Origin: Saccostrea echinata
Lineage: Eukaryota
DNA length: 64,000 nt
Direction of reading: 5' to 3'
Assembly: GCF_033153115.1 (NCBI RefSeq)
Contig: NW_026889803.1
Span: forward strand, 16,306,001 to 16,370,000
Part shown: piece after piece, positions 1 through 55,968 of the stretch
How positions within the stretch are numbered: position 1 is the stretch's first letter
Layout of the letters: every line of letters starts with the position of its first letter
Notes under the pieces: model-generated
Told to the model about the DNA's origin: nothing
The model's database searches: none
The model's input: the letters and a program-made list of their open reading frames with translations, nothing else
Program-made: the position numbers and the translations under genes

Positions 1-1695
1 TACGTTGTGTATGTCCTTAAGTCAGTTTCTCGAAGCTTTCCTAAATCTAGGACCTCGTCATAAGTTCGTCCTAACTTTAGGACAACATAAATCATATCCT
101 AAGATCATCCTAAGTTTGTGGTGATGGTTATTTTTCTGAGCATCGCAAGTATAAGCGACAATTTCGTGTTCCTCGACAATCTGCGTATTAGCTGACATGG
201 CCGTAGAAACCGGGGGGGGGGGGGGCACGGAGAGCTGTGCCCCCAATAATTTTGCCAATATATAGAATATTATAGAAAGCATAGCTACTATATGCTTATG
301 CCCCCTCCATAATAACGTCTGATGACCTATTTTGCATGTCAATGATAGTGTCCCCCTAAATGAAAATAAATAGTTGTTCCCCCCAAATGAAAATATATAT
401 AGTTGTGCCCCACCCCTCTCAAAAAAACTGAAATTGCTTCCTACGGGCCTGGCTGAGGAATTACACAAATCATTTCTTTTCCCACAAATGTTATCCCAAG
501 ACCTCTTCTTTGCAACAGTAGTTACAATGTCCGATAATATATCAAAAAGTACCTGAATTTTGCACATGAAAATTTTCACTTCTCTCCTTATTCATGATGC
601 AGGCACGTACGTCAGATCCCTTTTTAAACTGGGGAAAGGGGCAAAAAAAAAAATAATTGACTTTTAGGGAGAGGGGGTAGAAAAACATATATAAAAAAAT
701 TCCCTGAAAAAACTTTTGACATAAGAAAATTTAAAAAAAAAACGTCCGCACTCAAAAACCTTCTTACAAGTAATGTGTGTGAATGGGGGGGGGGGGGGGG
801 GGCTTCGTCCACACTGCAACAGAAAGTGGGGGACCGGTATTTTAAAAAAAAAAATCCATATCAAATTAACAGCAGGAGACTATTTTCGGAAAAATAATGA
901 GGGGTAAGTCCCATCCCCTCTCCAAATTAAAAAAAAAATTAAAAAAAAAAAACATTCATACACGTTTTATGTGTAAGGGACCAAAAGTGAAAATTACTCT
1001 CTTATTTTTATCTCTTAATATAAGTAAATCGGGGTATATTGTTTTGATTTACATCAATAAAATTGTTGAGAGTTCCAAGACTCGGGGATTAAGCATTGCC
1101 TTTATAATGAAACATTTGGTTTCGAGCCCTAAAATTCATTTAATATTTTTTATCAGTTTATTTTTTCAAAAAATAATTCAGACTTTTATAATAGTGTACG
1201 TCACATCATAATCTTCATTGTGGTAAATTACTGAATTCAAGATTATTTTTTATCTTTTGAGTTATCCAACATATGTAGATATTATTGCTGAAACGCCTTT
1301 TTTAAAATAAAAAGGGAATTAAATCTTTCACTTTGATAGAAAAAAAATTCGCTTGTTTCGTTGCGACTTACGTGGGGTATTAAATATTTCTTTTATAATT
1401 TTAAAGATGTAAACATTAAAATTATACTGAAGTCATCATGTAAATGGATAAATGTTTGTAATATAGAAGTTTATTTGGCTGCAAATGTCTCCCAAATTTT
1501 ATATGTATTAAGAAACAATAGTATTCACCGTATGTTAGGATATCCTAACTTAAGATGTTCCTAAGATACCGTCGAACTACATCTTATGACATGTCCTAAG
1601 TTGATCTTAGGATGTTCTTAACTTTCTTCCTAAGTCATATCTTAGGAACAATCTTAGGACGTATCTTAGGAAAGTTTCGTGAACATGCCTGCTGG
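1..1695. mobile_element. Right part of a non-autonomous DNA element with subterminal CCTAAG/CTTAGG repeats (PIF/Harbinger-like MITE family), containing smaller insertions
   Basis: Dense cctaag/cttagga motifs at 1-120 and 1535-1680, ending in ...ggaaagtttcgtgaacatgcctg. The same motif set occurs in the element at 1858-3579. The left end lies outside the window. Confidence 0.5.
196..451. mobile_element. MITE with CA(G/T)G...CCTG termini and 5-bp TSD
   Basis: Termini catggccgtag / ctacgggcctg, flanked on both sides by gctga (191-195, 452-456), with internal poly-G/C runs. Confidence 0.75.
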
Positions 1696-1857
1696 TCCAC
1701 ATCTCTCAAGCCACAAGAATAGGCTTTACTAGATACAATAATTGTGCTTTCTTTGGGTAGTATGACATAACTGTGACTAATGTGTCACAAATAAATGTTT
1801 TATCATTCATAATATCAATTGGTTAAGTGATAAGTAAAGGACGTATTTTAAAGGTCA

Positions 1858-3579
1858 GGGGCCTGTTTCACAAAGGTTTCCTAAGATATGTCGTAAGACA
1901 TAACTTAAGATATGCCTAAGTTATAACTTAGGAATTTCCTAATATTTGTCACATCTGTTTCACGAAACAATCTTATCTTAAATTCATCCTAAGACATTTC
2001 TTAAGTTGTGTTACGGACTAATGAAATAACTTCTTCACTCTATCTACAATTTTTACTGTTAGGAGGATGTTAGTATGAGTAAAAATCTTTAGTTTGAGTC
2101 GGGTTTTTTTTCAAGTAAAAAAAAAAGCTTGAAAAGGGGAGGGTCTGGAGGTTAGGGGTTACCCTCCACTTTCAAAGGACTTGGACAGAAGTATGGTATA
2201 ACCTTGACAAGTTTCCTACTTAGACTAAGCACTCACACATCCTTACATCCATATATCCCCCCCCCAACCACATGACGCATATTTTTTTTAAACTAATATT
2301 TGTGCTATTATATGTTTGACTTTTATTTTGCTCTGTATAAGGTATCGGAGGTTTGCAATTGTCTATTTTGTCCGCCTACTATATATTTTTCTACTAGTAT
2401 CGTTTCAATTAGGAAATGGAATAAATTTTAAAACAATAATTGCTTTGAGGGGCAAGCAATCTAACAAAGGCCTTATTTTCTTTTTATTTCTTCGAGAATG
2501 AGTGCTCCACGTTAGTTGTCCGTGTTACTGTGTAATTTTAAATAAGAATTTTTCGACAGATAAGAAATTCCAAATTGGCGACTGTGGAAATGACAACACT
2601 AACAGAAAAAAGTTGAAAAAAGGAAATATATATATAAAAAAATCTTTATGCATAATTATACCGTGACAAATCAGCCCCAAAATGGACAGTGGGACCTAAT
2701 ATTCCTTAACACAACATACATTTGTTCAGGGGAAGAGTTGAAAAGAAGTGGAGTCATTAAGCGGAAACAGAGAAAAAAAATGGTCCAAGTCTTGCACTTC
2801 AACACCTCCTTCCTCCCATGGGAGTTAATATACAAGTAATTTTTGGAGAAACAGCTATATTAGGAGCCGAAGATAACAAATTCGTTCCCTTATCAAATAT
2901 AATCTTTCAAATACTAAATATCGATTCAAATAATAGTAATATTATTGGATTTAAAAATATATAATAATGGTTCAAATTATATGCAAAGTTTTTTAACACA
3001 GACAATAGTGTATATAGCGTGGATTTTTTTTTTTTTTTTTTTGGTTTACAAAATCGTTCTCTTTAAATGATGGGTAATTAATCCAACATATGTACCGTCT
3101 ATTTTGTAGTAACATTGGGAAATCCACGAATTCGTGAGAAATCAAACATTCTTTAAGTACAATGTACTTGTAGTTCCAACTTCACCAATGGACATTTTTA
3201 TTTACCTTGGATTAATTTTGAACAGTGATAAAGACACATCTCTGACAATTCTTAAAATCCCTTTCTTAGCTATTACATACAAAGTAAAGCAGTTATAACC
3301 TGAAGGGATCACAATCATTCATATACTTGTAGTCCTTTGGATTTTTTCTCTCCCTGAACACACACAGTATCTCTCTGTAAGAATCCTTGTACATGTATCT
3401 ACAGCCGCCATATTTAGTTTCTTCCTAAGTCATTGATTTGCTTGTCTTAAAGTTACGACATAACTTAGGAATATCCTAAGATAAGACGAAGTTAGTGAAA
3501 CGGATAAGTAATGAACTTAGGAAAAAGTTCTTTCCTAAGATACTACTTAGTCCTAAGTTAGCTTTGTGAAACGGGCCCC
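1858..3579. mobile_element. Non-autonomous DNA transposon, PIF/Harbinger-like termini
   Basis: TIR ggggcctgtttcacaaag / ctttgtgaaacgggcccc, subterminal cctaag/cttagg repeats at both ends, no coding capacity. Confidence 0.7.
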
Positions 3580-5389
3580 TGATCAATGACGTATGTGACT
3601 TTCATGTTCTGTCTAGTAATTTCATAAGTGAGAATACATGATTAAGTTTAGATATCCAGCTGATGTTTTAAATTCATGACGAAAATGCATAATAAAATTT
3701 TGACTATTTTTACTTCTGAAATAAATACTTTTCTTCCTCCCCAAAGCCTCAGATGAGAGTTCCGTATATTTTAACATTTGTAGGATTTCCTTTGTTTATA
3801 TCAATTCAAAATTCATATCTGAAATGTCACGGTCGGGAGGCGGTTAATTTATAACATCTGTCCGGTCCAAATCATTAAACCATAATTTAAAATAACAAAA
3901 TGCTAATGTGGCATACCTACATGTAGTACGTGATGATCTTTAAAGGCATATCTCAAAGTTAAGATCATTATAACTATTTAGTCTAAAATAATAGTAATTC
4001 GATGATTGACGAAAAACATTACATTCTCATGCAATGTGTATATACTTAAGTACTGTTAACTGGGGAATTACCTAAAGGTAACATATAAATCTCTTGTAAA
4101 TAGTTCAATTATCTCAGTAGCTTCATGTTTTGTTATTTTAGAAATGTAATTCAACACTGAAAAATCTATCTTGCTAATTTTTATGCTGCGCAATTTTCCA
4201 TTCGAATTCCGATATGCTCGACCCATATCCACTCCTACTTATTGTGTTTTAAAGGTATACCTGTTTACGAAGTTTATCCATCAAGGCTTTTATTTTGGAA
4301 TTTTTTTTTCAATGGTGTTTCCCCTCGAAATCTGAATTTTAAATTTAATGAAGTATCAAAAGAAGATTGCAATGAATAATTAATCATATAATTTTTTGAT
4401 AATTATGCTTATTACCTACGTATTGAAGGTTTGCAATATAAAAATGAAGTGATTTTTTTTATGTCTGAATTATTTGACACTTCTAAGTAGTAAATTCAGA
4501 AAATCTAATATTCCCTACAATGTTACGGGTATGTTGGTCCAATGAACACATCAATGATTTCTCTCCTTCTACCTCTTTGTTCTTGAACAGGAAAAATATT
4601 ACTCGAATAATATTTTTTAAATTATTTTTTATATACTGTATCAAGATTTTGTTTTGAGAATAATTTTAATCATGTAATTTTTTCTTCTTCTTTTTTTTAC
4701 GGAAAACAAAAAATTTCCCTTGCCAGTATGGGTATCTACAACTAACATAATGTTTGTATAAAGTAGAAGATAACGACCAGTAATCAAGCTCAATATATAT
4801 GAGCTTTGGTCATATGAAGTTTTTTTATTGGTTTAAAAATATTTGCAGATACCTGCACTGATTTATGTTCATTTTCTTATCAAAAGAATTCCATATATGA
4901 TAAACAATAGTTGTGTGGTTTGACTTTCTCACTTTAGAAAGGTATAGGGAATTACAAAAACTTGAAAATTAAACTAGTAAGAACATTTTTACATACTACT
5001 TAATTATCATATATATATTTGTTCATAACGTCTTTAAATCTGAACTGATATAGGTTATTTTCATATCAAAAGAATTCCTGAAATAATGAGCAGTAGTTGT
5101 GTGGCTTGATTTAATAAATATTATTATAATAATATTATTATAATATATTATATTATAATATTATAATATAAATATTATTTATTAAATGAATTAATAAAAC
5201 TTGAAAATTAAACTAGTAAGAATATTATTCCGTAAATAATTATATATTTGACTACAACGACTTTATGTCTGTGAATTTAAGATGAAGAGATATGACAAAG
5301 AACAGACAGAAATAGTTCAGATATTTTTTCAATCTATTTTCATATAGTTCAGATATTTTGTCAGTTACTCATAAAATGTAATCAACATG

Positions 5390-5455
5390 ATTGCGAAATA
5401 CCCTGCCGTCTCTCGAATTTGGAAACTTTCCTTCCGGGTTTGTCTTAGTATAGAG
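5390..5455 (+). promoter_or_regulatory. Proximal promoter of pseudogene copy 1 (C/EBP-like, kB-like, ETS-like, degenerate TATA)
   Basis: attgcgaaat, ggaaactttcc (5421-5431), cttccgg (5431-5437) and tatagag (5449-5455), co-linear with 9435-9496. Confidence 0.45.
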
Positions 5456-5541
5456 GTTACTTAGAAATTCAAAGTATTAAGTTTGTCACGTGAATACTAA
5501 AATTGAATCTGAGTTTTAAATCCAGCCCAATTTAAAAGAAA

Positions 5542-7850
5542 ATGACTTTAAACAATTCATAATAAACATCTGAATTATTTTAATTTGTTGGATTTACCTA
5601 TTTCTTGCTGAAGGTATGTCGTATGAAGATTTTCATATAATATATATATGTCTGCAATTTAAGAATTATTAGTTTTCTAGTCAAAGCTGTAATCGTTAAA
5701 TTCTATTGATTCTCCTTCCCTCTGCATTTTCTCAAGCGGACAAAAGCATTAATGCATCTTTAATTTGATATACAAGGAATTTACAGAAATAGAAATAAAA
5801 ATATTACAAATAAGTCTGTAGAATAATTTTTCATGGTTAACAAAAAATAATTCGTTCCAAAATGAGTATCTGCACGGAGAACAGCTAAAGAATTTGTCAT
5901 TCAAGTACGTTTATAGATGTGTTCATTTTTTTTCTAAGTAAATATCTGCATGTGGATTGTTTTGATATTTTAACGGCATATCTTAGTATCCAAATATTTA
6001 CATCCACTGAATATTTAAAGAAAACCATTATTAGTTCGTTTGTTTGTTGTTGTTTAACATTCCTCTCGAGAATTTTTCACTCATATGGAGACGCCACCAC
6101 TTGCCGGTAGAGAGCTACAAATTTTGAACTATACTCGGCACTTAGGGCCATTGAGCAGTGAGGGATCTTTTTCGTGCCAGCACCTACTGCACCTACTGGG
6201 ACCTCGGTTTATACGGTCTCATCCGAAGAAACGGTCACCACGTCCCCCAGTGGGATTCTAACCCGAGACGTAAGACTCTACGACTCTAGAGCAAACGCTC
6301 TAACCACTGCGCAACGCGGGCGACTTATCAGTTTGTAAACAACACTAGGCATATCACCTGTACAGATTTCTTGATCAGTAACTCTTCCTTCAATGAAACA
6401 TACAATGGCGTACATGGACATATCAATGATACAATAACTAATCTTTTTAATCCTACTTTAAATAATTATTTATACAGATATAAATATAAACAATAAAAAA
6501 TGTCTTTCTTTGGTTGTTAGTACGGGAATTAATGTCGCAGCTATTTTACAGAAAAAAATTACATAACCCGCTTGAACATTGATTTTAAGGTAATTCTACA
6601 AGTTCGGAGTGATAATTAGATAAAAAAAAACCAGAATACGTCTATGCAAAAAAATCTAATATTATAGTATTACAATTTTTTAGTTTTAGTGCAGGAGCGA
6701 TTGCTGGCATTGTTTTCAGTTCTGTCGTTTTTTGACTCATCTTAATTCATATGATCATATACTTCTGCAGTCGAAGTAAATTGAAGCAAACAAATGTGTT
6801 GTTCTGCATTATACCACCGCAAACAAGCAAAAGATCGTCACATGTAAGTGTGTATAAGTAACCTCAAATAATTATTTGTTGTGATTTAATTAGGTTCCAT
6901 TTCTTTTGCATAATTGTACATGATATTTATAACAGAATTTATAATTTCATGCTAAATTTAGATTAGGTTTTTTCTTTTACCTGACATCTGCGTAAGGTAG
7001 GGGTTAAAGATACGAAAAATTGAAAGTTTCTTGATAGACGTTAGTCTTTAATAAGACATGTATTCTACAACTTGCAAATTAATATGAAGATATGAAAGTT
7101 TAAAAAAAGATAATCTGCATCTAATCTTGAGTGTCAAATTAGAAGGTTCAAACAGACCTGATTAAAAACTTAAATTAGTTAACATGTTAACTTTATTAGA
7201 AAATAAGCACTGTAAAAAAGGTTGAGCTTTTTTCCATTCCTGTTGTATCTGATTAATATTATTTATAAAAATTCGAATTCTCGTTTCATCAATGATGGCT
7301 GTGAACATATACTAAAGATACTAGTAACTTTCAGAAAACGAGGAATCTAAAATGAGTTCTAATAACGGTTGGAAAAATGTCAACTAAAACAGTGTCCTCG
7401 AAACGAATATTGCCTGAATAAGTTTAAAACAGAATAAACAAAAAAGACCCTGAATTTATCCAGTGACTATTCATATATAATAACCATGATGCAAGTTTTT
7501 AGCATTGTAGATTAAACTGTTTTGATACATGCTTTTCAATTTTACAGCTAATTATATGGCTGGAGTTGCCTACTCTTCAAAGCCCTCGCAAAAATGGCTT
7601 TTCCTGAAGTAAACTTCCCTTCAAAGCTTTATCCACACGGCACACTTTATAATATTGCATTTCAGTATGGAATAGAAGACCCAAACCAGAAGTAAAAATT
7701 ATGATACATTCTCTGGACAACAGTATGACAAAGTTCCATCTTCATACAGACCTACAAACGGCAAGAAAAAAAAAACACAACAAACAAACAAAAACAAAAA
7801 CTTTATCTCCCTACCAAACACAAGGAAACATTACAATATCGAACTTAAAA
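5542..7850 (+). pseudogene. Pseudogene copy 1 (A-type) of the single-pass PY-tail membrane protein family
   Basis: Exon 1 (5542-5613) has a TAA after MTLNNS and ends ...CWIYLFLAEG|gt. The TM exon (6684-6843) reads FSAGAIAGIVFSSVVF then TGA, plus a frameshift. The last exon from 7548 (NYMAGVAYSSKPS...YNIAFQYGIEDPNQK) is frameshifted. Exon 2 was not identified. Confidence 0.85.
6037..6323 (-). mobile_element. tRNA-derived SINE (family A)
   Basis: Reverse complement of the element at 13787-14098 (gtcgcccgcgt head, cttcggatgagaccgtataaaccgaggtcc core, (aaac)n tail). Confidence 0.9.
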
Positions 7851-8266
7851 AAAAATGACATGTACTAAACTACTTCGAAAGCCTTATCAATTTTCACTTG
7901 AAACTCATTTCAAATGCATATTGTGTGTTAAACATAAATTGTGCCATGCATACATGTGCGATTGTGAAATACATGCTCCGTCTGTCCTAAATTGATATGT
8001 ATGGAAATCAGTTGTAAAAGGTTGTATTTTCATTTGAATTTATTATTTTTAAATTCAAATAATTTGTATACTTTATCAAATTTATATTTTTCTATACTTT
8101 TTAGTAAAAAGCAACAATGAGTAAGTGATCATCTGTTTCTTTGTTCATTTTTTCTAAGCGACAAATTGTGTGACCTGGTGTTAATTTATTGACCAGATTC
8201 AATTATATATTTTTTGTATATTTTTAAAATTAATTATTTGTTTATTTGAAATAAAATAAAAGTAAT

Positions 8267-8444
8267 NNNNNNNNNNNNNNNNNNNNNNNNNNNNNNNNNN
8301 NNNNNNNNNNNNNNNNNNNNNNNNNNNNNNNNNNNNNNNNNNNNNNNNNNNNNNNNNNNNNNNNNNNNNNNNNNNNNNNNNNNNNNNNNNNNNNNNNNNN
8401 NNNNNNNNNNNNNNNNNNNNNNNNNNNNNNNNNNNNNNNNNNNN
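8267..8444. other. Assembly gap (178 N)
   Basis: Run of n between gene copies 1 and 2. Confidence 1.
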
Positions 8445-9434
8445 CACCCTATGTATTTATAATTTTTAAAAATACATTTCCGTCACTCATTGTGACAGTA
8501 CAATAAAACGCGTTTCTCTGTGTATATTTTTAAGCGTGACTATACACCAAAAAGGCATTTTGCTTATAATTAGAAGGAACGCATAGCAAACGTAAATTTT
8601 TAAAAAGTAATTTTTTATTCACCTCCTCTTCCTTGCGTTTCTTCTGCTCTGTCTTCCCGGTCCTCCACCGCACATTCTACGTACATCTTCCCCACTCCTG
8701 TCTACTTTGATTTATCCATTGTAAACTGTCCGCACCCAAACGCACTGACAAAAGATATTGACACTGATTTATTAAAGTTTAAAAGTTTCAAGCGCTATTC
8801 CGCAAATGCAAAAAAATTATCGTTATCAGTAAAATAGTTTTACACACCTATAAAAATTGAAAAGGAACAATGAGTATTAAAATCCCATGGACTTGGAGAT
8901 TCTAAAGTTAAATATCTTCCGACTCATAAAAAACGATCATTTTACTTAACAAATAAACAATAGGCCATCAGCATTCAACAAGAATAAATTATTAAGAAAA
9001 TTAAATTTTATAGGCTGTAAATACATGTACCGTCTTCCGTTCTTTTTTTTTTTCTTTTTTTTTTATTTTGTTTTTTTTTTTTTTAATGTTTTAGTCCAGT
9101 AAATTTTTCCATGTTTCAAAATTTTATATTATTTGAAGATATCTTCGATGATATTGGTTATTTCATATTATAAATATTCCAGAATTCATGAGCAGAAGTT
9201 ATGGGTTTTGAACTTTTCACTTAAGATAGAATAGTGAATTAATAAAATGTTGATTCTGATATATATAGAATATTTTGCGATAATTGAATATATATTTTAC
9301 AATAACGTTGTTAATTTGGAAATGATACTCTAAAACAAAAATATGGTATTGCTAAAGCATTCAAGAATATTTCAATTATTTTTTCTCAACAGCCTCGATG
9401 TTATTTAATCTTAAATTACGATAAAAACAACATG

Positions 9435-9496
9435 ATTGCGAAATGCCCAACCTGTACTCTTAGGAATTTTCCATCCGGGTTTGCCTCAGTATAAAG
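9435..9496 (+). promoter_or_regulatory. Proximal promoter of intact copy 2: C/EBP-like + kB-like + ETS-like + TATA
   Basis: attgcgaaat 9435-9444, ggaattttcc 9463-9472, catccgg 9472-9478 (CCGGATG on minus), tataaag 9490-9496, about 115 bp upstream of ATG 9605. Conserved in copies 1 and 4. Confidence 0.55.
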
Positions 9497-9604
9497 GTAC
9501 AGGTATATATATATAAAGACCATTCCGATTTTAGAAGTAATGAGTGTGACACTTGGAAACTCTCTGAATCTGAATTTTAAATCCAGGCCCGAATTAAAAA
9601 GAAG

Positions 9605-9671
9605 ATGGCTTTAAATAATTCATCATACATGTATATGTTAATTTGTTGGATTTGTGTATTTCTTGTTGAAG
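9605..9671 (+). CDS. Copy 2 exon 1: signal peptide MALNNSSYMYMLICWICVFLVE
   Basis: ATG 9605, hydrophobic signal-like peptide, phase-1 donor G|gtatgt, homologous to 5542, 14929 and 35815. Confidence 0.85.
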
Positions 9672-11145
9672 GTATGTCGTATGACGATTTTCATAATTAA
9701 CACACGCGCACACACGAAAAATAAATAAAAATAAAAAATAAATAAAAGAAAAATAAATAAAAATTTTAAAAAAAATGTACATAAATAATGTCCGTAAAAT
9801 AGGAATTATGAGAATTCCAATGAAAGCGACACATCATTGATTCTCCCTCCCTTTGCATTATCTCCAGCGAACAAAATAATTAATACAACTTGTTATAGTG
9901 TAATTTACAGAAGTAGAATTTTAAAAAAAAGAATAAATCTGTCTGAATGATAATTTTTCATGGATAATTAGAAAATATTTCCTGCCAACAAGAGTATCTG
10001 CAACTTAGAGAAACTATAAAAATTGTCCTTCAAGTTCATGTTTATAATACTATTGATATGTTCGATTTTTTTTAAGTAAATACTGGTGCATTAATTGATT
10101 CTGTTTGTGGAATGTTTTGATATTTATGCGGCTTACCTTAGCATCCCAATTAAACTAAAGTGACCCTTGAACACATAGAATCATGTCATTTATCAAATTT
10201 AAATGCCGTTTAAAATTAAGTACAAAACCTAATTTCTTAATTTTCTTTTTTTTAGTACCGAATACGACGAAAGTTTGTAACCCAATCTCGAGATTCGTGG
10301 ATAAAAATATTTGTAATGAATATAAATAAAAATACTGTATTTCACATAATATTCTCTCCTAAATCATTAGTATGACGATTTTTGAACGATTTTGATACAC
10401 TGAAGCTCCGACAGTGGGTAACATTTCTTAAAATCATTGATGTAAGTTTTTTTTAATTAACATTGAACAAACAAAACAGACTTGAAACTGTTTCTAGTTT
10501 GTTTTCGTTTTGTTTGTTAGTTGTTTGTTTCAGCAACAGTGGAACCCGTTTGTTTTACTCATTTTATTTTTATACAATGCAAAGAAAACAAAAGATTTTT
10601 TTAAAAAAATCAAGGATCAAATATATTCAATATTTCTAGTGTATCAATCTAATCTTGATTTATCTCCAGTATACAGTAATGAAGTGGAACCAAATGAAGT
10701 GGAACTTTTAATAGATTTATGATCAGCTAGAGCATTATATATTGTTTCTTACGAATGGCATAGATATGCTTTGAGGAGGTGACTCCTGCACACTAAAGCG
10801 TATATTAAATGCGTAAAAAATCCCGATTTTAAACAGGAAGTTTTTTTTTCGGTTTAATGATTTTACAGAAGTTGTAAACAGTCAGGAGTAGTACACGTAT
10901 CGCACAGAAAGTATTAGCTGGTTTTGTGTTGTACATCAAATACTGACGTGTCACTTATCTTTCCCTTTTATGGTATATACTTGAGAACAAATTATTATCC
11001 CCTTGAAAAAGCAACATTCAAAACAAAAGTCAACATATTTTACTAAGAGTATCCAAATATGATACGATTTTACAGCAGTATGCTTAAGAGTTTAAGTTAC
11101 ATGATTTTAATTTGACAAGAACAAATTTTTTTTTATCTTTCCAAG

Positions 11146-11227
11146 TTTGTGATGCAAGATTCAGGGCCAGATTTCGGTTCAGGTACACCAGCTACAGCTC
11201 GTATGGGTACTATGGATCCTCCTCTGG
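11146..11227 (+). CDS. Copy 2 exon 2: end of signal and short ectodomain VCDARFRARFRFRYTSYSSYGYYGSSSG
   Basis: Polypyrimidine tract plus ccaag acceptor, GG|gtaagt donor. Phase 1 to phase 2 fits both neighbouring exons, and the CDA/CDG/CEA start is shared by paralogs. Confidence 0.8.
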
Positions 11228-11410
11228 GTAAGTTATACTGGACCATCTCACTTGTATTGTTCTTGAGAAGCATATTACTTTCTCATACCCAGAAATCAAG
11301 GCATGAACATTAACTTTAAGGTGATGTTACAAGTTTGAGGTCATAATTAGATATTATGTTCAGAATATGTCAATTTCAAAAACTTAATATTATAATACAT
11401 TTTATTTTAG

Positions 11411-11565
11411 TTTGAGTGACGGAGCTATTGCTGGTATTGTTTCCGGTTCTGTCGTTTTCTGTATCATATTAATTTGTATCATCGTATGCTGCTGCAGTAA
11501 GAAAAAAGAAGCGAACAAAGGTGTTGTTTTGCATTATAACCCAAACCAGCAAAAGATCAACACAT
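11411..11565 (+). CDS. Copy 2 exon 3: TM helix + Cys cluster LSDGAIAGIVSGSVVFCIILICIIVCCCSKKKEANKGVVLHYNPNQQKINT
   Basis: ttttag acceptor, T|gtaagt donor, 155 nt open, hydrophobic helix followed by CCC and basic residues. Confidence 0.9.
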
Positions 11566-12864
11566 GTAAGTGTGTATAAGTAATTTAAATAATATGATGG
11601 TTGAAAAATGGTAATCCAAGTACCAGCATCTTAGCTGGAGTATCAAATTAGAATATGCGAACAGACCTGATGTTAATCTAAAATTAAAAACGTTAACTTC
11701 AAGATTAGTAAATAATCACTGAGGTCATAAAAATACTGGGATGTCAATCAAACCAACATATTGTGTAATACACATTATATGTGAAATTATCCAATTGAGT
11801 ACATGTACATATCACATAATTACAACAAACATCAAACACCTAAGGGGCCTACCCAGTACTAGATGATAAAACAAAAGCAAAAAAGGTGGCCAAAAATCTG
11901 TCTATACATATATGATATGTATTGGTCAATTACAAAGGTGATAACTACCGGTAAACAGCTGGGTGAGGGAGGGTAGCTTATGGATAATAGCTGCTACACT
12001 CGACAAAAACAAAAATGATAATAAAGGTGCTGATCAGCTATTGGATGAAAAAAAGATAAAGAGGTACCCGACAGGGTGCATTTAGAAACCACTCACAAAA
12101 ACAAAAAAATTTGTATTGCGATTGGATGAAAATCTACACAAAGAAACCCCTGATGGGATGCATTACGAAACATCTTGCATAAACAAAAGGAGGTCAAAAT
12201 GTGATAATAAAATTGAATTTAAAAAAATCAATGTATATTAAATACTGGATTTAACACATCGCACTTAACTTAAAACAATTTGATACCATAAATCTATATT
12301 TAAGTAAAACTTCTTCAATCCCAGCAATTTCTTCCAGTAAACCTGAATTTTTGCCAAAATAAATAAATAAATATATAAATAAATGAAAATAAATGAATGA
12401 AAAAAAAAAATAGAAACAACAGAACAATTTTGATGTGGTTCCTAAATGTCATTTATTAAAAATGAAAATTAAATCAAAATGTAATAAAAATAATTGAAGG
12501 CCAATCAAAGCAACATACATATATATAATGTATAATACACATTAAAGGTAAAATTGACCAAATTCAGCACATACTTTGCAATTACAACAAACATAAAACA
12601 TCAAAGGGGTCTCCCAGTATACTACATTAAGCAACAAAAGCAAAGAGGTGCCAACAATTATACTACGGGCAAAGTTCGAGTTCCAATACTGATTTGGGGA
12701 AAACAACAACAACAAAAAAAAAAACAGCGTCTTCAAAATGAAGAGATGCATAGAATATATAAAAAGACGCTAAATTTATTCACTGACCACTCATATTAAA
12801 CCATGCAAGTTTTCAGCATTATAGATTAAACTGTTTTATTGATAAACCCTATTCAATTTTACAG

Positions 12865-13130
12865 CAAATTGTAAGGCTGGAGTTACCTACCCATCAAATC
12901 CCTCCACAAGAACGGCTACTCCTGGAGTTAACTCCCCTTCACAACCTTATCCATACGGCACACAGTATAATACTGCATTTCAGTATGGAACAGAGGACCC
13001 AGACCGGAAGTATGACAAAGCTCCACCACCATACAACGCTTCAAATGGACAAAATAATGTAACTACTTTGTCTCCCTACCACACACAAGGAACCGTTTCA
13101 GTATCGAACATAAAAGTACCTCCCCCATAA
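12865..13130 (+). CDS. Copy 2 exon 4: Pro/Tyr-rich cytoplasmic tail (QYNTAFQYG, APPPY, ends KVPPP*). Full spliced protein 189 aa, CYYR1/WBP1/Shisa-like architecture
   Basis: ttttacag acceptor, open to TAA 13128-13130. Exons sum to 67+82+155+266=570 nt. Confidence 0.9.
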
Positions 13131-13786
13131 AAGGAAGGACGTGTGATATAGTACTTTGAAATCCTGAAACATGAAACTATAATTTTATATGAATATAATG
13201 TGTAAAACATAAATTGTACCATGTATACATTTGTGATTGTGAAATACATGTATATGCTCTGTCTTTCCTATGTATATGTCTATGCAAATCATATGTAACA
13301 GGTATTTTCATTTGAATTTATTTTTTAATACCCAAATAATTGTTATACTTTATCAAAGTTTATCAAAGTACTTTTTAATGAATAAACAACAATGAATTAG
13401 TTACCATTTTTTTCTTTATACATTCAATCTAAGCGACAAATTGTGTGTTTTAATGTTCATTTATTTACCAGAGTCAAGTAAATCAATTCAGTATTATTTG
13501 AATACGAATAAAATTTATTATTTCTTTCTTTGGTTTATTTTGAATTAGTGTACAAATACAGTAAAATTTGTTTATTACGAACTCGGATATAGCGAATTAA
13601 CGGAAATAGCGAACTGATTTTGTGTCCCCCAGGGGTTAAGATAACGAAATTTACATTTTTATAACAAATTTTCACAGATCTCAATGTTTAATTTAAAATA
13701 TTGAACTGACTTTACTTATGTAAATATTTTAAATTTGAAATTCAATTCCCCCGAAAATATTATTTGTTAAATGTATACGTCACTTT

Positions 13787-14098
13787 GTCGCCCGCGTGGC
13801 ACAGTGGTTAGGATCTAAAGCGGTTGCTCTAGAGTCGCGGAGTAAGGAGTTGATCCTTACATCGCGGGTTCGAATCCCATTGTGGGACGTGGAGACCGGT
13901 CCTTCGGATGAGACCGTATAAACCGAGGTCCCGTGTCGCAGTAGGTGCTGGCACGAAAAAGATCCCTCACTGCTCAATGGCCCTAAGTGCCGAGTATAGG
14001 TCAAAATTTGTAGCTCTCCATCGGCAAGTGGTGGCATCTCCATATGAGTGAAAAATTCTCGAGAGGGACGTTAAACAATAAACAAACAAACAAAAAAA
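13787..14098 (+). mobile_element. tRNA-derived SINE (family A), full length with 13-bp TSD
   Basis: A/B-box head (tggcacagtgg...ggttcgaatccc), Deu/Nin-like core ccttcggatgagaccgtataaaccgaggtcccg, tail (aaac)n, TSD tatacgtcacttt at 13774-13786 and 14099-14111. Confidence 0.92.
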
Positions 14099-14298
14099 TA
14101 TACGTCACTTTTGTAAAAAAAATTTAAAAAGATTTAAAGAAAGAAAGAAAGAAAGATTTTTAATGAAAACATACCCTATTCATCAATGGATCTTTAATTC
14201 AAACACTAAGAGCTCGTTCAGGAGGGTTTCCTTATAAGGCAAAAAGTATATTGACTTTTTATTGCATGATTGTTGTACTGTTCATTAATTGAAAAAAG

Positions 14299-14514
14299 TA
14301 ATGGTATCTAGATTCCTCAAACATCAAATGTACTAATTATTCTACAATGTACTAATTATTCTACAATAAACATTTTATATGATTTTTAGTAAACAGTGTT
14401 TTATGGTATTAATGGTATCTAGATTCCTCAAACATCAAATGTACTAATTATTCTACAATGTACTAATTATTCTACAATAAACATTTTATATGATTTTTAG
14501 TAAACAGTGTTTTA
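14299..14514. repeat. Two-copy tandem duplication (period 111 bp), each copy with an internal 19-bp duplication
   Basis: taatggtatctagattcctcaaacatcaaatgtactaattattctacaatgtactaattattctac... at 14299 and 14410. Confidence 0.9.
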
Positions 14515-14928
14515 ATTAAAAAAAAATAATCGCCCAATACCAAAAGCTTATCGATTCATTTTATGAACGAAAAAACATTTACAGTGTACCGTTCAGCACT
14601 CTTTACAATTAAATAATATGCATAGTTATACTGGAATTTCTGGTGAGATTTTTTGTAGAGAGAAAGCAAATTTAATTAACTTGAGTTTACTTTTTTGAAA
14701 AGTTGTAAAAGGTTTAGCCGATTTTTATAATATTGAGGAAAAAATCCCTTCCTTTTCCCATCTTTTGAATGTTTCTGGGCCGTCAAGAACAGACGCACCT
14801 ATTTGTTATGGGTTAATATTTCGTAACACATTTTCACACACAATGTAACTTGTTGACAAACTTTATGGTTCAAGTATTTAATCGAGAAACTACGTTTGTG
14901 AAATTGCTTCCTTGATTGAACACAAGAA

Positions 14929-14989
14929 ATGGCTGTGGACAAATCAATATATTTAGTTATTTTTTGGATATTACTAATGTTCCTAGAAG
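14929..14989 (+). CDS. Copy 3 (B-type) exon 1: signal peptide MAVDKSIYLVIFWILLMFLE
   Basis: 5' part of ORF 14929..15126. Phase-1 donor G|gtatct in the same position as in the paralogs. Confidence 0.85.
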
Positions 14990-16570
14990 GTATCTTGTCA
15001 TATCCGATAACCATATATTATTCTGAAATGAATTACGAACCAAGTATCATTTATTTAGGTCTTCTTCTGACAGTAAGGGTACCAGCTGCTGTTTATTCCT
15101 CAGCGGAAGCTCCTACTTTCATTTAACCTTTTCTGAAATTATATTTTTTAAATTTTAATTTCATAATTCATAATGAAAAAGACACATTTCTATAAATATA
15201 AGGAAGCACACACACCCTCAGATGTTTACTATTTATAGAAAGAGACTTGAAGATTCCAAAAGAAGTTAATTCCTGTAATTGAAACTTTGGAAAAATAGAA
15301 ACAGTAATAAAAAGGGGGGATCCATTTGACAAATATTAGTAAAAAATACACATGATCTAAAGAAATCAGGAAGGAAAATTACACAGCACACACACTTTTA
15401 CAATCACTGTCTGCTAGAATCATGTGTAGATATTTTAAATAATTTGTCCTCATTATTAAACCATGTGACCTATATAATAACACAAATTATATTGTAGGAT
15501 AGGAGAATTACAGGCTTTCTATATATGTGCGTCCGCTGCAACCTAACAGCCTAAGGTTATTGAACCTAATTGATTTGTTTGATTTTTTTGTCTTTTCTGT
15601 ATTTCGATTAATTTTTATGAAAATTGAATTAACAAAAGGGGTGTATATTTTAACTGTATTTATTTAGCGTGATAAAAACTGTAAAAATCATACTTACTAC
15701 CTACGAGTTGCGCTGATTATAACTTCTATCCCATAAGGAGTAGAATATCAAAACAATAAGGGATCGTGAACCCTGCATTTGTTTATGCCTCTATTGTTCA
15801 CGTCTAATTGTCTAAAATGTATGCCAAACGAACTCTTAACTGATTCATAATATTTCTTTCCTCGCTCTCTCTCTTCCTTATTTATCATTATTACTATTAA
15901 TATTATTATCATATTTAAAAAAATCATATTATTTTATGTCATATTATATTATACATAGTGTTTCAACAAATATGTCCCGATTTTGAGGTTTCCAAAAAAA
16001 GGTTATGATGTAATTATAAATATTATATAGAAGGAAATTTAGCAAAAATGTCAAGAATATAAGCGTACAATTTCATCAATAAAGCTTGATCATTAAGACA
16101 GGCATTTTTAAAACATTGACATCACTGACAGTTTTCGATTTGTCATTTTATAATGTCTTCCAAATGGCCGTCAGTTTCATTTCGTTTCTGAAGTTTTATA
16201 TTGCTAAAATTTGGACACATTTAAAAATTGTTTCCCAGAAAGATACTTCTCTTCTAAGTTCATCTTCATCGAAATCATATTCACCAGAATTGGGTTATCC
16301 CCTTTGCATAAAAAAATTAATAATATCAATATAGTTATCTCTTGTATCATCCTTTTATAAAACTGACATGATTTTTTATGATATAGTCAATACGTAAAAT
16401 GAACTAGCAGTATGTTTGAGCATAAAAAATTGTGTTTAGATCTATAATATATATTGAGGAAAAACATACGATAAAATACAGTTGTTGTTTTAGATATAGA
16501 CGCCCCCAAAAATTATATCTTATAATATTATTATGAATCGTAAATGAACACTTTAGATTTGTTTTAACAG

Positions 16571-16628
16571 ATTGTGATGGGAATTACAGATATTATAGTC
16601 CATATATGTATTCTTACAATAACTATAG
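16571..16628 (+). CDS. Copy 3 exon 2: DCDGNYRYYSPYMYSYNNYS (Tyr-rich ectodomain)
   Basis: ttttaacag acceptor, AG|gtaagt donor, 58 nt, phase 1 to phase 2. Confidence 0.82.
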
Positions 16629-16785
16629 GTAAGTGATATCTTTTATATATTAAACTTATCTAAATAATGATTATAATGCTTTGAGCTAACCGGAATAAAA
16701 TATAAATTAAAAAACATGACCTGTACCGCAAATCATACTTTTTTCTCTTTTAAATACACAAGAACTTTTTAATGGATATTGGAGA

Positions 16786-16950
16786 GTACTGTCCTTTCTG
16801 ACATATTTCATTTTGTCAAATAAAATCTGCAACATGACTATTTTAGTCATGTTGCAGATTTTATTTGACAAAATGAAATATGTCAGAAAGGACAGTACGT
16901 GACATTTTCAATATCAGTATATAAATACTGATATTGAAAATGCCACGTAC
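16786..16950. repeat. Two abutting hairpins (55-bp perfect arms with 3-nt loop; 26-bp arms with 4-nt loop)
   Basis: 16786-16840 is the exact reverse complement of 16844-16898. 16895-16920 pairs with 16925-16950 with one mismatch. Confidence 0.95.
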
Positions 16951-17015
16951 TTTTTTTTACCGTAATGTAATACAAATCAGTAAGGATGTTTAGATTTATG
17001 GCAATAATGGCTTAA

Positions 17016-17927
17016 GGAGGGATTCTTGTCTGGTTTCTGACTAGATGAAATATTCAAAGTATATTTGCTTATATGTTTTATATATTTAGATGTAAGAGAT
17101 TTAAAAGATCATATTTTTTCATCATCACAATTGTACAATTTTAAATAGAAATGGTAAACTGAGTTTGAAATCTAGCAGGAACTATATTTTTGGCGGAATG
17201 GCGGCGTATGAAAATATCTTTTTCTGCCTCTCAAAATTATTATAGAACAATGAATTTAGTTACACAATCAAAGACTGAAGAAATTAATTTTTAATTGTAA
17301 ATTAAATTAATAATAAGGGACTAAAGTCTTAAATATATCAAATAAATATGATTTTCCAAAAAAAACTACAATTATGTTAGCTTTTAAAAGCTTCCAATCT
17401 AAGTACAGATTTTAGCCAAAAATCCGTAAAAAGTGGGGTTTTTTTTCTCTCTTAGTAATTATAAACGATCAAAACTTCCTATTTTATATCATTTTGTATC
17501 TTTATGTGACATCTTCACCATATGTGAAAATAAGAAAAATTTAAATATAGGAAGCATATAAAAATAACTAAATATCCTAAAAATGTAAGAAAAATCTAGA
17601 AAAATCGGATTAGCCAATATCCATTTTAGTTAAATTATTTATGTCAATTTGGTACTATCATCTTATAGACCCTATATGGTAATATCTCTTTATGCAAAAA
17701 GAAAAACATTTAATCTTTTGAACTAGAAGTAGTCATCGCATGATTGGCAACAGTAATTTTTTATTCTTAATGTCCAGAGAAAAGTTAATGACCTTGACCT
17801 GACCTTGCCTCTAATATAAAAAGGTCAGATTTAATCTAACTGATACCATCACTTAATGATATTGTGCTCTTGATTCTGTGAAATTTCATTGATTTTTGAA
17901 TACTAGAAATATGAGAAGAATCCCTCC
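17016..17927. mobile_element. Kolobok-like non-autonomous element in intron 2 of copy 3
   Basis: TIR ggagggattctt / aagaatccctcc, TTAA on both flanks. Confidence 0.8.
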
Positions 17928-17973
17928 TTAACAAAAACTAATGTTTCGTCATACAGTTAATTGTTATTTTTAG

Positions 17974-18134
17974 TTCCAGTGGCGGATTAATTGGTGGAAT
18001 CATGACAAGCATTGGGTTTTCTATCATTATACTTTTTACCATCATATGCTGCTGCTGTAAAGGAAGTAAAGCAAATACTAACACTCGTAGTGTGATGTAC
18101 TTGCATTCAGGAAACCAACAGAGGATAGTAACAT
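17974..18134 (+). CDS. Copy 3 exon 3: SSGGLIGGIMTSIGFSIIILFTIICCCCKGSKANTNTRSVMYLHSGNQQRIVT
   Basis: tttttag acceptor, T|gtaggt donor, 161 nt open, TM helix + CCCC. Confidence 0.9.
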
Positions 18135-18490
18135 GTAGGTTCTTATACTGAAACATCATTCCTTCCGAATTAATGCATACTATGTATGCCTATAATAGTC
18201 TATAAATACGTGCAATCTGATGACAACCGCAATTCTTTCCGGCTAAAGTTTGACAACTGTACATTTTTTTAATGGTAAACAGGTGTTAACAAGATATATT
18301 GAAACGTTAAAAATCTTTCTCCTATGTCGAGGTACACAGATGATTCTTTAACATATGGAACTTGAGATTAACATATTCAGGATTGAGAAAATTACAATCC
18401 TGTCAACCCCTTAGAAGAGATGTATTAAAACTGAAACAGCGCATCCAAGTAATGAAATCCTAATAATTATTATGTCGTTTAATTTTACAG

Positions 18491-18765
18491 CAAATAGAAA
18501 TGTCGGAATTCACTACCCAGCACATCCCGATACAGCAAATTCTGCTGCCGGAGTTTATTCCCCTGCACAACTTTCTTCATACTATGGACAATATAACACT
18601 GCTTTTCAATATGGAATTGAACTGCCAGATCAGAAATTTGATACTGCTCCTCTTCCACCATCATATGAATCAGTGGTTGATCAAAATAGAGTGATGCCCC
18701 CTCCTTATCCAACGCAGGAAGAAAATGCGTCAAACATGACAGATCCCCCACCATATAAAGCATAA
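18491..18765 (+). CDS. Copy 3 exon 4: tail with QYNTAFQYG and three PPxY motifs (PPSY, PPPY, PPPY). Full spliced protein 184 aa
   Basis: 3' part of ORF 18472..18765, ttttacag acceptor. Exons sum to 61+58+161+275=555 nt. Confidence 0.92.
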
Positions 18766-19150
18766 CGTGAATTTTAAATTTTTCATTAGTTATCCCTGTC
18801 TGAGACATACTTATACTATTATTTATGCATTAATTACATTGTACATGTATTTGGTTTTGTACGTATTATGATATTTTTCTATTTGAATCCATTCAGTATG
18901 TATACATTTTTTATTTATCTTTGATTAGGAACATTAAAATTTTTCACTCATGTTGGAAAACTACCATTGCAGTGAAAGGCTGCGAATTTAGACCTGAAAT
19001 AGCTGAAATTGCATGAACTCCCTGGCCAAGTTCAAATCCAAGAATTCAATTGTAGAAGTTGAAAGAATTGTGTTCTTTTTAGACAAACCTATCTTTAGCC
19101 ATATTCAAAACTGTATGCATACTCAACACAAAAAAGAAAACAATTTAGTA

Positions 19151-20357
19151 TACTCAACAAAAAATGTTCAGGGTTATGAAAATCTTCATTCATAATTTCT
19201 ATATTGAAAAAGTATATTTAATCAAAATAAATCGTAAAGTTTCTTCTGTAAAGTAACAACACATCTGATAAAAAAAAATAATGGTAAATGTTCACTTGGA
19301 CAAAAAAAAAAACAAGACCAACAATTATGGACATCCTCCTTATCAGAGTGAATTTCCATATCCAGTAATTGCATAATTTGTTTAATTCAAAAACAGCAAT
19401 TGATCCAACAAATGTTAAAACTTTGTGTGGCCTCGAATAACAACCCTACATTGCCTGGGGAAACTTCGAATGAGTGAACTGATGGTCCTTTGGGGAATGC
19501 AATCCCATTCCTCTTAAAGAGCAACTTCAAGTTCATTGATATTGGATGGAGCAGAAGGATTCTTCGGTCTACACACTCGACGCCTTCCATTATTAAAATC
19601 CACACAGAATTTGGATGAAAAGAGTACAGATCTCAAGTGACGCATTTGACAATTTGCATGTTCTCGTGCAAACTCCAGTCTCTTTACTCTGTTGTCTGCA
19701 GTCAAAATTGAGCGTGTGGCAGGCCATCTTGCTTTCAAGTTAGCTTCACGAAGCCTATTCCTGCAAGTTTGATTAGAAATGTTTACTCCATGTGTGTTGC
19801 AAAAGTCCCTGTTTAAGGCAACAGCCGAGTTGAATCAGTTTCGCTTTGCTTGCAGTACAAGTTGGCGGTCCTGCCGGGTGGTCGTACATCGTAGTCTTCC
19901 AATCCGAGGCCTTTCCTGGACTGATTCTGTTTCCTGAAATCTCTGCCACAAACGACCAATGATGTTTTGTGACCTGCTCATCAATATAGCAACTGCATTC
20001 CAGTTTGTAGCATCCCTATGGCCCTACCAGCTTCCTGTACATTTAGACGTCGTCTTTGATACATCACCTGTAAATCATTTGTGTATAAAAGATGTTTAAT
20101 TGTCCTTATTTATTGTCAGTATGAAGTATTGACAGCAGTACATAAAGACATGCTTACCAGTTTTAGTATGCAATGCTGACTAGGGTTAAGAATTTTCCAT
20201 TTGGCTTCGAACACGAGGACTGATAAGTCAGTGAAGTGTAACAAACATTTGTTGTTATGGTTAATCATACACATCATTTTAAAATAAGTTTCAAAATTGC
20301 GAATTTTTGAATTTAACTGTATGATATATAAGCCTTAACTTTTTTTTGTTGAGAATA
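19151..20357 (-). mobile_element. Decayed Tc1/mariner transposon
   Basis: Imperfect TIR tactcaacaaaaaatgttcaggg / ccttaactttttttgttgagaata. Transposase fragments (ORF 19514..19738: KRLEFAREHANCQ...SVLFSSKF...GRRRVCR) are frameshifted. Confidence 0.8.
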
Positions 20358-20399
20358 CCGAGTTTTTTTTACTCTTATAACTGTTAGAAACTCCATAAA

Positions 20400-20763
20400 A
20401 ATCCGATATCCAGTAGCATAAATAATGATGGCTGGTAACAAACTTCACAGATAACTTTGAGAAAACACGAGGAATTTATGATGAAAGATCCAATAGAAGA
20501 TGGTACAAAAAAACAAACAGAAAGACCATTGATTAAAAAAAAATGTTTAAAAACACAATGAATTTTTCCAGTGACTACTTACATGTATCCTTAACCATGA
20601 AAAAAAAATAACATTATAGAGTAAACTGCTTTGATATATGTCACTCAACAGCAAATTCTATGGCTGGAGTTACAAATCCTTCAAAACCCTCTGCAAAATG
20701 GCTACTACTGGAGTTAACTTCTCATCACACCCTTATCCATAAAGCACATAGTATTATTCTGCC
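20400..20763 (+). pseudogene. A-type relic: end of intron 3 and 5' half of exon 4, cut off at the BEL LTR
   Basis: cag|caaattctatggctggagttacaaatccttcaaaacc...gctactactggagttaac...ccttatccat aligns with 7548 and 12865. The upstream intron sequence matches 7330-7545. Confidence 0.8.
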
Positions 20764-22620
20764 TGCATATCACAGATTGTATAACCACACACAAAAATCA
20801 GTGCATCGATTTATTGTGTTAACGGTTAAGAACTGAAACAAAACAAAAAAAAAATAGAATAACCCAACAGTTACATGATAAATAGTATCAATATATAACT
20901 ATAGACATAGCATAAACTGTGTAATAAGTAGTAAATAAACATATTCAAAAGGTAAATAGAAATAAAGATTCACCATAAATCCAAAATATAAAGTTTTGAC
21001 ATAAGTGGGTTTCCATTGAAAAATGTTATTACGTACTCCAGTTTTATGCTTAATGATTATGACAATTACAGTGTTCCATACTTTTAAGAGATAACAATAG
21101 ATATACCTAACATTCAAATTACAAACATTCTACACAAAAAGAGTTTAACTATGATAAATATCCGCGTAATAAATATTTACAGCACAAGTTTACTTAAAGT
21201 GTGTGGTAGCATACATCAGAAATATAGACATATGACAAAAGTGTCCTTGTGTGGGTCACACAAAGGAATAAAACAGGAGTCAATAGGAAGTGATGTTTAT
21301 CTTAAGAAAATTAACTCTAAAAGTTCAAACAAGATATAACTCTAGATACTATAAAAGAAAACTATTTGATTAAAAAAAAAATAACTCTAACTATGAAATA
21401 AATAATTTAGGCAACGTAATATACATATAAATAGAATGTTCATAAACATTACACTCCCCATCTAATATCTGAGGATATCACTATGAAAACCTAGTTACAT
21501 AAAATTCTTCAATTTAACAAATAACAGTTTCGAAGAATCTGGTACATTGTTACATGAAATTACACTGCAATCAGAAGCACAGCCTCTGTAACTGGACGCG
21601 TATTAAACACATTATTACCGTCTCTATTCACACGAAGTCCTCCTTTTCGGATTTTCTTGTCAGATTCACTTCGGTACATTTGTTCCACCACTGACATCTT
21701 CCAGTCGCAACGATGCACTGAGTTATCTTTCAGTAATACAACATCACAGACGGATAAATTTCTCTGGTTATGTGTCCACTTCTGTCAACTATGCAGCGTT
21801 ACTAAGAATTCTTTACGCCATCGTTTCCCGAATAGGTCTGCAAGTAGTTGAACTCTCTTCCACTGTGCCTTGAATGCATCCTTCTCCTCAAAGGGTTCAA
21901 GTAGTTTTCCACTTTTGTCCGTCTTCTGGGTCAAAAGAGTGTATGGAGTTAGTATGAATGGATAGTCTGGGTCCGTTGAAATTGGCACGAGCAGTCTTGA
22001 GTTTATTATAGCGCTTGTCTCTGCCATGAATATAACAAGGCTTTCATGTGTCAACTTCTTTGCAGTACAAATCTATCAACAGAAGTATAGGATCCGTCTC
22101 GTAAGGCCTATCATCCTTTCCCATGCGGGATGAGTATGGTGGGATGAAGATCCATGCGGTTCTGTTGTCCAAAAGAAACTTTTTGACAGGTCTATCTTCC
22201 ACGTTCATCACATCGATTCCTAGACTTTCTGTTACCCCAAGAAATTTGTGCTACGTTCCGATCTGAACTTTTTAACATGGCCTCTTACTGCAATGAATCT
22301 TCTCCCCAAGGTCCAAAGGTATCTACCCCTTAACTTGAGAATAGTGGTCCAGGTGGCATTCGATCATGAGGTAAGTCTGACATGATCTGATGTTCGGGTT
22401 TTCTTATCATCTTTCTGCATGTCACACAGTTGAATATAACTGAATATACTATTCGTTTTGCTTCTGTTATTCAATAGCCTGCGGATCTGATAGCGCCCTC
22501 TGTGAAATGGCGTCCTTGATGTTTAGTGACCTGGTGATAATGGCGCACCAAAAGCAGAGCTATGTGTTGCTTGCTAGGAATAATGGTAGGGTTTCTCTCG
22601 TTGATGTTCAACTCTGATTT

Positions 22621-48013: not shown

Positions 48014-48019
48014 GAGACA

Positions 48020-48808: not shown

Positions 48809-48829
48809 TTGGTTGGATTCATGTCTGCA

Positions 48830-50390: not shown

Positions 50391-50394
50391 CTAG

Positions 50395-55918: not shown

Positions 55919-55968
55919 GAGCTGCAAGCTTGAGGCATAGACGCGAGATCGTCATTTTAAATTTACAG

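Follow-up and report, generated by a model that had tools for sequence, protein, structure and literature searches.

The window analysed here, a 64,000-nucleotide stretch of AT-rich eukaryotic DNA from Saccostrea echinata, contains a tandem family of four-exon genes that we modelled from the sequence, with all of the exons described below on the + strand. Open frames with canonical splice sites were found for copy 2 (9605-13130, 189 aa) and copy 3 (14929-18765, 184 aa). The copy 2 model matched RefSeq XP_061162634.1 (uncharacterized LOC133171858, Saccostrea echinata) letter for letter and the copy 3 model matched RefSeq XP_061162616.1 from Met17 onward, so both genes are already in the protein databases, where they are listed without a function. 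To assess splicing, we placed contigs on window positions 4200-21000; they came from four public runs that belong to two studies and represent no more than three samples. The runs carry no RNA record and their RNA origin is a guess; splicing was shown by the GT..AG joints. Joint counts were taken from the 15 of 56 joints listed and the per-run counts are therefore lower bounds.

Exon 1 of copy 2 (9605-9671) carries the start codon and a predicted signal peptide and is identical to the RefSeq entry. Exon 2 (11146-11227, 82 nt, bounded by AG and GT) encodes a predicted cleavage motif, C-D-A, followed by a cysteine-free stub of Arg, Phe, Tyr and Ser. Exon 3 (11411-11565) encodes a transmembrane (TM) helix (about 11421-11495) that ends in CCC and is followed by a basic juxtamembrane stretch, and exon 4 (12865-13130) encodes a Pro-rich tail with the family motif QYNTAFQYG, a PPPY motif (13023-13034) and the stop codon. 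Among the joints listed, the exon 1-2 joint was detected in at least two of the four runs and the exon 2-3 and exon 3-4 joints in at least three of the four each. In the initial annotation, exon 2 was spliced in and supplied the exposed N-terminus of a protein tethered to a membrane; both points were upheld, the first by GT..AG joints to both neighbours together with RefSeq identity and the second as a prediction. AlphaFold2 returned a mean pLDDT of 48 with helices at residues 5-32 and 53-79. Within the stub, an alternating ten-residue run (11157-11186) occurs once across the six frames of the window.

Two side observations were made for copy 2. In run X1 the exon 2 contig extended into intron 1 to 10630 (10630-11145, 516 nt) and the exon 1-2 joint was absent among the joints listed, indicating intron retention or an internal start. 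As copy 2 has no Met beyond residue 11, this intron-1-containing form would not yield the protein. An in-frame 3-nt insertion at window position 11542, in exon 3, was present in three of the four runs, placing length variation in the juxtamembrane part and not in exon 2.

In copy 3, exon 1 (14929-14989) encodes a predicted signal peptide, with the RefSeq model beginning later at Met17. Exon 2 (16571-16628, 58 nt, AG..GT) encodes C-D-G and a Tyr-rich stub with a net charge of +1 and a single Arg, exon 3 (17974-18134) a TM helix with CCCC, and exon 4 (18491-18765) a tail with PPSY, PPPY and PPPY. The boundaries, lengths and translations given for exon 2 of copies 2 and 3 in the initial annotation were reproduced. 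The exon 2-3 and 3-4 joints of copy 3 were each detected in four of four runs and the exon 1-2 joint was absent among the 15 of 56 joints listed. Depth arithmetic for a contig of run X5 assigned 77 letters to the bin with copy 3 exon 1, which equals the unexplained 77 letters at the 5' end of this contig, and the full copy 3 signal exon is therefore likely in use. Judging by an in-frame ATG at 14929 together with run X5, the XP_061162616.1 model, which lacks most of the signal peptide, appears too short. An X5 contig also carries the 3' end of copy 3 to 20827 (18765-20827), over an orphan exon 4 remnant.

Copy 4 has an open exon 1 (35815-35881) and an exon 3 (42747-42907) with an intact TM segment and CCC. 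It had been credited with a 76-nt exon 2 at 42492-42567, and this exon was not recovered. No AG acceptor was found before 42492, and use of the nearest downstream in-frame AG (42499-42500), which has a good pyrimidine tract, would produce a 67-nt exon without the C-E-A motif. The exon 4 homolog (44745-44895) is interrupted by a stop at 44822-44824, with two further in-frame stops; the tail halts after 26 residues, ahead of any PY motif, and no PY motif is translated. The missing AG and the tail stops suggest that copy 4 has probably decayed. The three peptides compared in the initial annotation would then be two live ones and one that is probably decayed.

Copy 1 (5542-7850) is a pseudogene: exon 1 carries stops, and exons 3 and 4 are disrupted by a frameshift as well as by stops. 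It has no exon 2, as the region is deleted with repeats in its place, one of them a tRNA-headed SINE-like repeat. Exon 1 of a further copy-3-like gene (61450-61510) has an open frame and a GT donor; its remaining exons were not found in the window and probably lie past the window end. Family remnants were observed at 4329-4430, 20612-20762, 52138-52296, 55956-56228 and 32335-32448, comprising a broken exon 1, stop-bearing orphan exon 4 pieces and a 3' UTR piece, and these look like signs of repeated duplication and decay. The window also contains SINE-like repeats headed by tRNA-Ser or tRNA-Thr (13796-14085, 6043-6325, 55134-55421, 61750-62012 and 22624-22947) that had deep coverage in the runs placed, and satellite-like 138-bp tandem units at 46422-47111 with more copies at 47649-47937. 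A GC-richer region on the minus strand (48000-52060) resembles a decayed retroelement by eye, with eight stops in the one frame tried. Inverted repeat arms of 638 nt, 98% complementary and spaced 775 nt apart, span 25846-27896 and are probably a young non-autonomous DNA transposon.

Exon 2 was the least alignable exon between copies, and the copies were alike there in composition only. Compared to composition-shuffled controls, stub identity was 0.22 (z -0.6) between copies 2 and 3, 0.16 (z 0.0) between copies 3 and 4 and 0.37 (z 1.9) between copies 2 and 4, versus shuffle-based z scores of 5.6-8.5 for the TM exon between copies. For the five intact S. echinata paralogs (10 pairs), stub identity was 0.33 as compared to 0.28 for shuffles (mean z 1.1), and mean z was 2.5 for the signal, 3.6 for the TM segment and 5.6 for the tail. 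The description of exon 2 as barely alignable therefore stood at the level of the stub peptides but not for the DNA of copies 2 and 4, where exon 2 matched in 50 of 69 aligned columns (z 4.4). The alignable intron pieces of this pair were 70-82%, about equal to the exon 2 DNA match. A composition count gave 34 of 30133 overlapping 24-mers and was uninformative.

Each gene has a single exon 2. The introns lie in phases 1, 2 and 1, so that exon 2 is entered in phase 1 and left in phase 2, and with these asymmetric phases it cannot be skipped in frame. Exon swapping was rejected on the asymmetric phases together with the similarity between copies 2 and 4, which continues through the end of exon 2 into intron 2. 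With the one copy lacking exon 2 (copy 1) being a pseudogene, the portrayal of exon 2 as a swappable cassette was not supported.

The closest relative of copy 2 was S. cucullata XP_062621017.1, at 61% overall. Between these two proteins the stub was identical at 22 of 28 positions (79%, z 6.5 over shuffles), as compared to 40/50 for the TM region, 18/26 for the signal and 54/98 (55%) for the tail. By these alignments, conservation of the copy 2 stub in the S. cucullata counterpart equals that of the TM exon and exceeds that of the tail. In two other cross-species pairs the stub was less conserved, with 18/31 versus 38/48 for the TM region in one and 16/25 versus 42/51 in the other, stub indels, and a z of about 3. 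In a tree built from the signal, TM and tail, the S. cucullata protein formed a clade with copies 2 and 4 at a support of 100/100; the inner fork had support of 81/81, and the sister pair, and hence the orthology of copy 2, is not settled. We infer that the RF run was probably the older state of this clade and the copy 4 version derived.

Nei-Gojobori dN/dS for exon 2 was 0.36 between copies 2 and 3 (18 codons) and 0.75 between copies 2 and 4 (19 codons), so that these two alignable pairs gave no sign of positive selection, at low power. The other exons gave 0.40-1.05, and the exon 2 values were reported to lie within that range. Two higher values for copies 3 and 4 were rejected as signals: 1.17 for exon 2, which was based on a chance-level alignment and involved decayed copy 4, and 2.52 for exon 4, which likewise involved decayed copy 4. 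An independent contig (run X1, 10630-11226) had one differing letter, at 11053 in the intron, and none in 11146-11226, and among the 40 of 345 run differences listed none fell within either exon 2. The proposal that exon 2 is hypervariable and under diversifying selection was not borne out by the conserved S. cucullata stub, the low-power dN/dS values or the X1 contig.

To compare stub composition we used ten proteins: copies 2-4, three more from S. echinata, three from S. cucullata and one from Ostrea edulis. The composition counts left out P0008 and P0013, which lack an N-terminus, as well as the near-duplicate entries P0015 and P0053. All ten proteins have a [C/S]-[D/E]-[A/G] motif followed by a stub of 17-31 residues, confirming the shared cleavage-like site of the initial annotation. 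The 241 stub residues included 79 Tyr (33%), 32 Arg, 1 Lys, 7 Asp/Glu, 2 Pro and no Cys, and Arg was at mature position 3 in nine of the ten proteins. A bias of Arg over Lys suggests cation-pi or guanidinium chemistry over plain charge. The expectation that composition would be conserved in other species was thus correct, in the form of Tyr/Arg-rich, Cys-free stubs. The alternating Arg/aromatic cationic strand, which had been proposed as a common trait, fit only copy 2 among the three copies: strict alternation was seen only in copy 2 and in the S. cucullata counterpart, both with a net charge of +5 within the first ten residues, and the remaining stubs were Tyr-rich. The copy 4 stub has 3 aromatics in 25 residues. 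A net charge of +4 or +5 was limited to the copy 2 clade, with the other seven stubs at +1 to +3. As charge and alternation are limited to the copy 2 lineage, the family trait is a Tyr/Arg patch and the RF strand one lineage's version of it.

By layout, these proteins consist of a hydrophobic N-terminus (predicted signal peptide), the stub, one TM segment and a Pro-rich tail (112 of 794 tail residues). A Cys cluster lies at the end of the TM segment in all ten (CCC, CCCC, CVCC or CCxCC). Copy 2 has one PPxY motif and copy 3 has three; a canonical [P/L]PxY motif was found in four of the ten proteins, five have APSY or APPY, and neither form occurs in copy 4. RefSeq gives the name CYYR1-like to two relatives, one of which aligned to copy 2 at 40% over 96 aa. 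The nearest Atlas cluster was molluscan CYYR1-like (104 members, 0.89 and 0.93), a single-source result that we treat as a lead. Five of nine members matched Pfam PF10873 (CYYR1), all below the cut-off of 31 (best 22.2 bits, copy 2 14.4). The six-Cys ectodomain pattern C*C*CC*CC was not found, with no Cys in the mature stub of any of the ten proteins. Homolog searches returned 2 matches among 96 candidates, 7 among 2818 and 38 among 5891, of which 5 were strong; the 33 weak matches were dropped, as the seven inspected have only a generic TM motif in common. Of eight matches in one protein search, two (2487 and 1124 aa) were left out, and a metagenome scan gave 29 pattern matches with none confirmed. 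The simplest frame for the gene is likely the CYYR1/Shisa-like adaptor layout, which the initial annotation did not name.

Six cysteines in the ectodomain, a single TM segment and a Pro-rich PY tail define the STMC6 proteins (PMC5578492, PMC6125347). As described for CYYR1 and the Shisa-like STMC6 group (WBP1, WBP1L/OPAL1, VOPP1, TMEM92; PMC11399591, PMC5578492, PMC6125347), the oyster proteins have a signal peptide, a short ectodomain, one TM segment, three Cys at the TM end and a Pro-rich PPxY tail, and human CYYR1 is described with three PPxY motifs, as in oyster copy 3. Unlike them, the oyster proteins have no six-cysteine domain, carry a Tyr/Arg/Ser ectodomain of 17-31 residues, keep a canonical PPxY in just four of ten and are encoded in a tandem array with dead copies. 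Because no six-cysteine domain was found, we do not file the oyster proteins as STMC6 members, but they likely work like them. TMEM207, a Shisa-like relative without the Cys domain (PMC6125347), and by layout Drosophila Commissureless and yeast Rcr1, are described as single-pass PPxY adaptors without a Cys-rich ectodomain (PMC6125347, PMC5578492), like the oyster proteins; Atlas feature scores of 0.76 are the sole sequence-level tie, and an Arg/Tyr stub is absent from their descriptions in the cited text. The myticalins of Mytilus likewise join a conserved signal region to a cationic, Cys-free part that differs from one gene copy to the next, and are described with a C-terminal propeptide, strong inter-individual variation and a restriction to Mytiloida (PMC5577615). 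In contrast, the stub of these Ostreidae proteins is followed by a TM helix and a cytoplasmic PY tail and is conserved across species; the fully secreted myticalin-type layout (signal, cationic core, C-terminal propeptide) does not describe them.

The comparison set covered Saccostrea and Ostrea edulis, with no Crassostrea/Magallana or Cys-containing mollusc sequence in it, and within this set the cysteines appear to have been lost from a canonical ancestor. A literature search, which took in few subscription papers and no supplements, returned no paper on this oyster subfamily. The apparently novel features are a Tyr/Arg peptide in the presumed place of the Cys domain and, in the copy 2 lineage, a conserved RF strand.

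Together these data lead us to favor, at somewhat better than even confidence, a reading in which spliced exon 2 encodes the Cys-free, Arg/Tyr-rich outer stub of a likely CYYR1/Shisa-like endocytic adaptor for ubiquitin ligases, the stub being a likely paralog-specific recognition patch and not a released antimicrobial peptide. The four exons are spliced into a frame of 189 aa. The signal peptide is predicted to be cut after C-D-A, leaving 27 residues outside the cell or in the endosomal lumen, and the Cys cluster ending the TM helix is predicted to be palmitoylated. Human CYYR1 is described as binding WWP1 through PPxY at late endosomes and sending it to lysosomes, and WBP1L as adapting NEDD4-family ligases to CXCR4 (PMC11399591). 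By analogy with these two proteins, the PPxY tail would bind NEDD4-family WW domains and take adaptor and partner to lysosomes. The Tyr/Arg stub, nearly without Lys, Asp/Glu and Pro, may bind a partner ectodomain, a glycan or an anionic lipid through cation-pi and aromatic contacts and so help set the cargo of each paralog. After duplication the low-complexity stub would drift fast by substitutions and small indels, with purifying selection then holding it in functional copies as other copies decay, a course that is shown in part. The stub differs by copy, yet most of it is retained in a second species of oyster, which makes a copy-specific recognition patch likelier than a fast-swapping antimicrobial peptide. 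Splicing, the RefSeq match, the TM segment with its Cys cluster in all ten proteins, PPxY in copies 2 and 3 and constraint on the stub support the adaptor reading; counting against it are the Pfam scores below cut-off, the lack of a six-cysteine domain, PPxY in four of ten proteins and the less conserved stubs of two cross-species pairs, and on balance we consider it modestly probable.

The stub could instead be part of a tethered pattern sensor, in which it binds microbial polyanions (LPS, nucleic acid or sulfated glycans) at the surface, maybe as a self-assembling beta-strand, and the PPxY tail drives uptake. The net charge of +5 in the first ten residues and the Arg/aromatic alternation of copy 2 and its S. 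cucullata counterpart fit this idea, as does a tandem birth-and-death history with several dead copies. Tandem birth-and-death is common among immune families. Synthetic RFRFRFRF is described as making amyloid-like aggregates (PMC9656882) and Shisa domain transcripts as over-represented in mussel gill (PMC5549309). However, seven of the ten stubs have a net charge of +1 to +3 and no alternation, and the data examined showed no hint of either positive selection or variation between alleles, so we consider such a sensor unlikely, if worth keeping in mind. Rather unlikely, in our view, is a stub that serves only as a spacer of biased composition, remaining once the six-cysteine domain was lost and needing no more than compatibility with signal peptidase and the membrane interface, with the RF run arising from slippage. 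Repeated codon runs (AGA-TTC-AGG and AGA-TTT-CGG) suggest local duplication, AlphaFold2 gave no structure for residues 33-52 (pLDDT <50), the stubs of the five intact paralogs were no closer than shuffles, and exon 2 divergence between copies 2 and 4 is near intron level, although this last comparison says little as copy 4 has probably decayed. A mere spacer does not account for a residue order 79% identical to that of the S. cucullata counterpart, as compared to 55% for the tail, nor for 32 Arg to 1 Lys and the position-3 Arg of nine of the ten proteins.

The version put forward in the initial annotation, a membrane-bound precursor that sheds its stub to act as an antimicrobial cationic peptide diversifying under pathogen pressure, draws on the cationic and aromatic composition of copy 2 and on the concentration of between-copy divergence in exon 2. 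It has parallels in the mussel myticalins, described as linear Cys-free cationic peptides with variable cores (PMC5577615), and in the ability of gamma-secretase to cut ectodomains shorter than 75 residues directly (PMC13507816). The same source describes palmitoylated TM segments as not cut, and palmitoylation is predicted for the Cys cluster found in all ten proteins. Neither copy 2 nor copy 3 has an RxxR or dibasic site in its stub, and such sites were present in just four of the ten proteins. The cross-species conservation and dN/dS below 1 also argue against shedding under such pressure, as do the weak charge of most paralogs and the conserved signalling-type tail, which a precursor would not need, making this version very unlikely. 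We regard as most improbable of all a Tyr/Arg patch that uses DOPA-type chemistry for adhesion or cross-linking, tying cells to shell matrix, ligament or cement. Tyr makes up 33% of stub residues, with Arg neighbours, and a Tyr-rich stub of this kind recalls mussel foot proteins, but the tail points to endocytic turnover and the repeat expansion of adhesive proteins is absent.

A more speculative proposal, which we hold to be doubtful, is that oysters turned a Shisa-like adaptor into tethered peptide sensors by exchanging the disulfide domain for a Tyr/Arg 'sticker' (an RF beta-strand in the copy 2 lineage of two species) that uses cation-pi and cross-beta contacts to cluster or to bind microbial polyanions and is directly coupled to NEDD4-driven uptake. 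If true, an antimicrobial-like peptide would here serve as a one-exon receptor, and if the copy 2 strand did bind microbial polyanions, bivalve immunity would gain a very small type of receptor. Returning to the favored adaptor reading, the CYYR1/Shisa-like work cited here deals, in the text available, with the PPxY tail and not with ectodomain function (PMC11399591, PMC5578492, PMC6125347). With a Tyr/Arg peptide of 20-30 residues that is distinct between paralogs and kept between species, the oyster subfamily would offer a minimal natural system for stub-swap tests of cargo choice.
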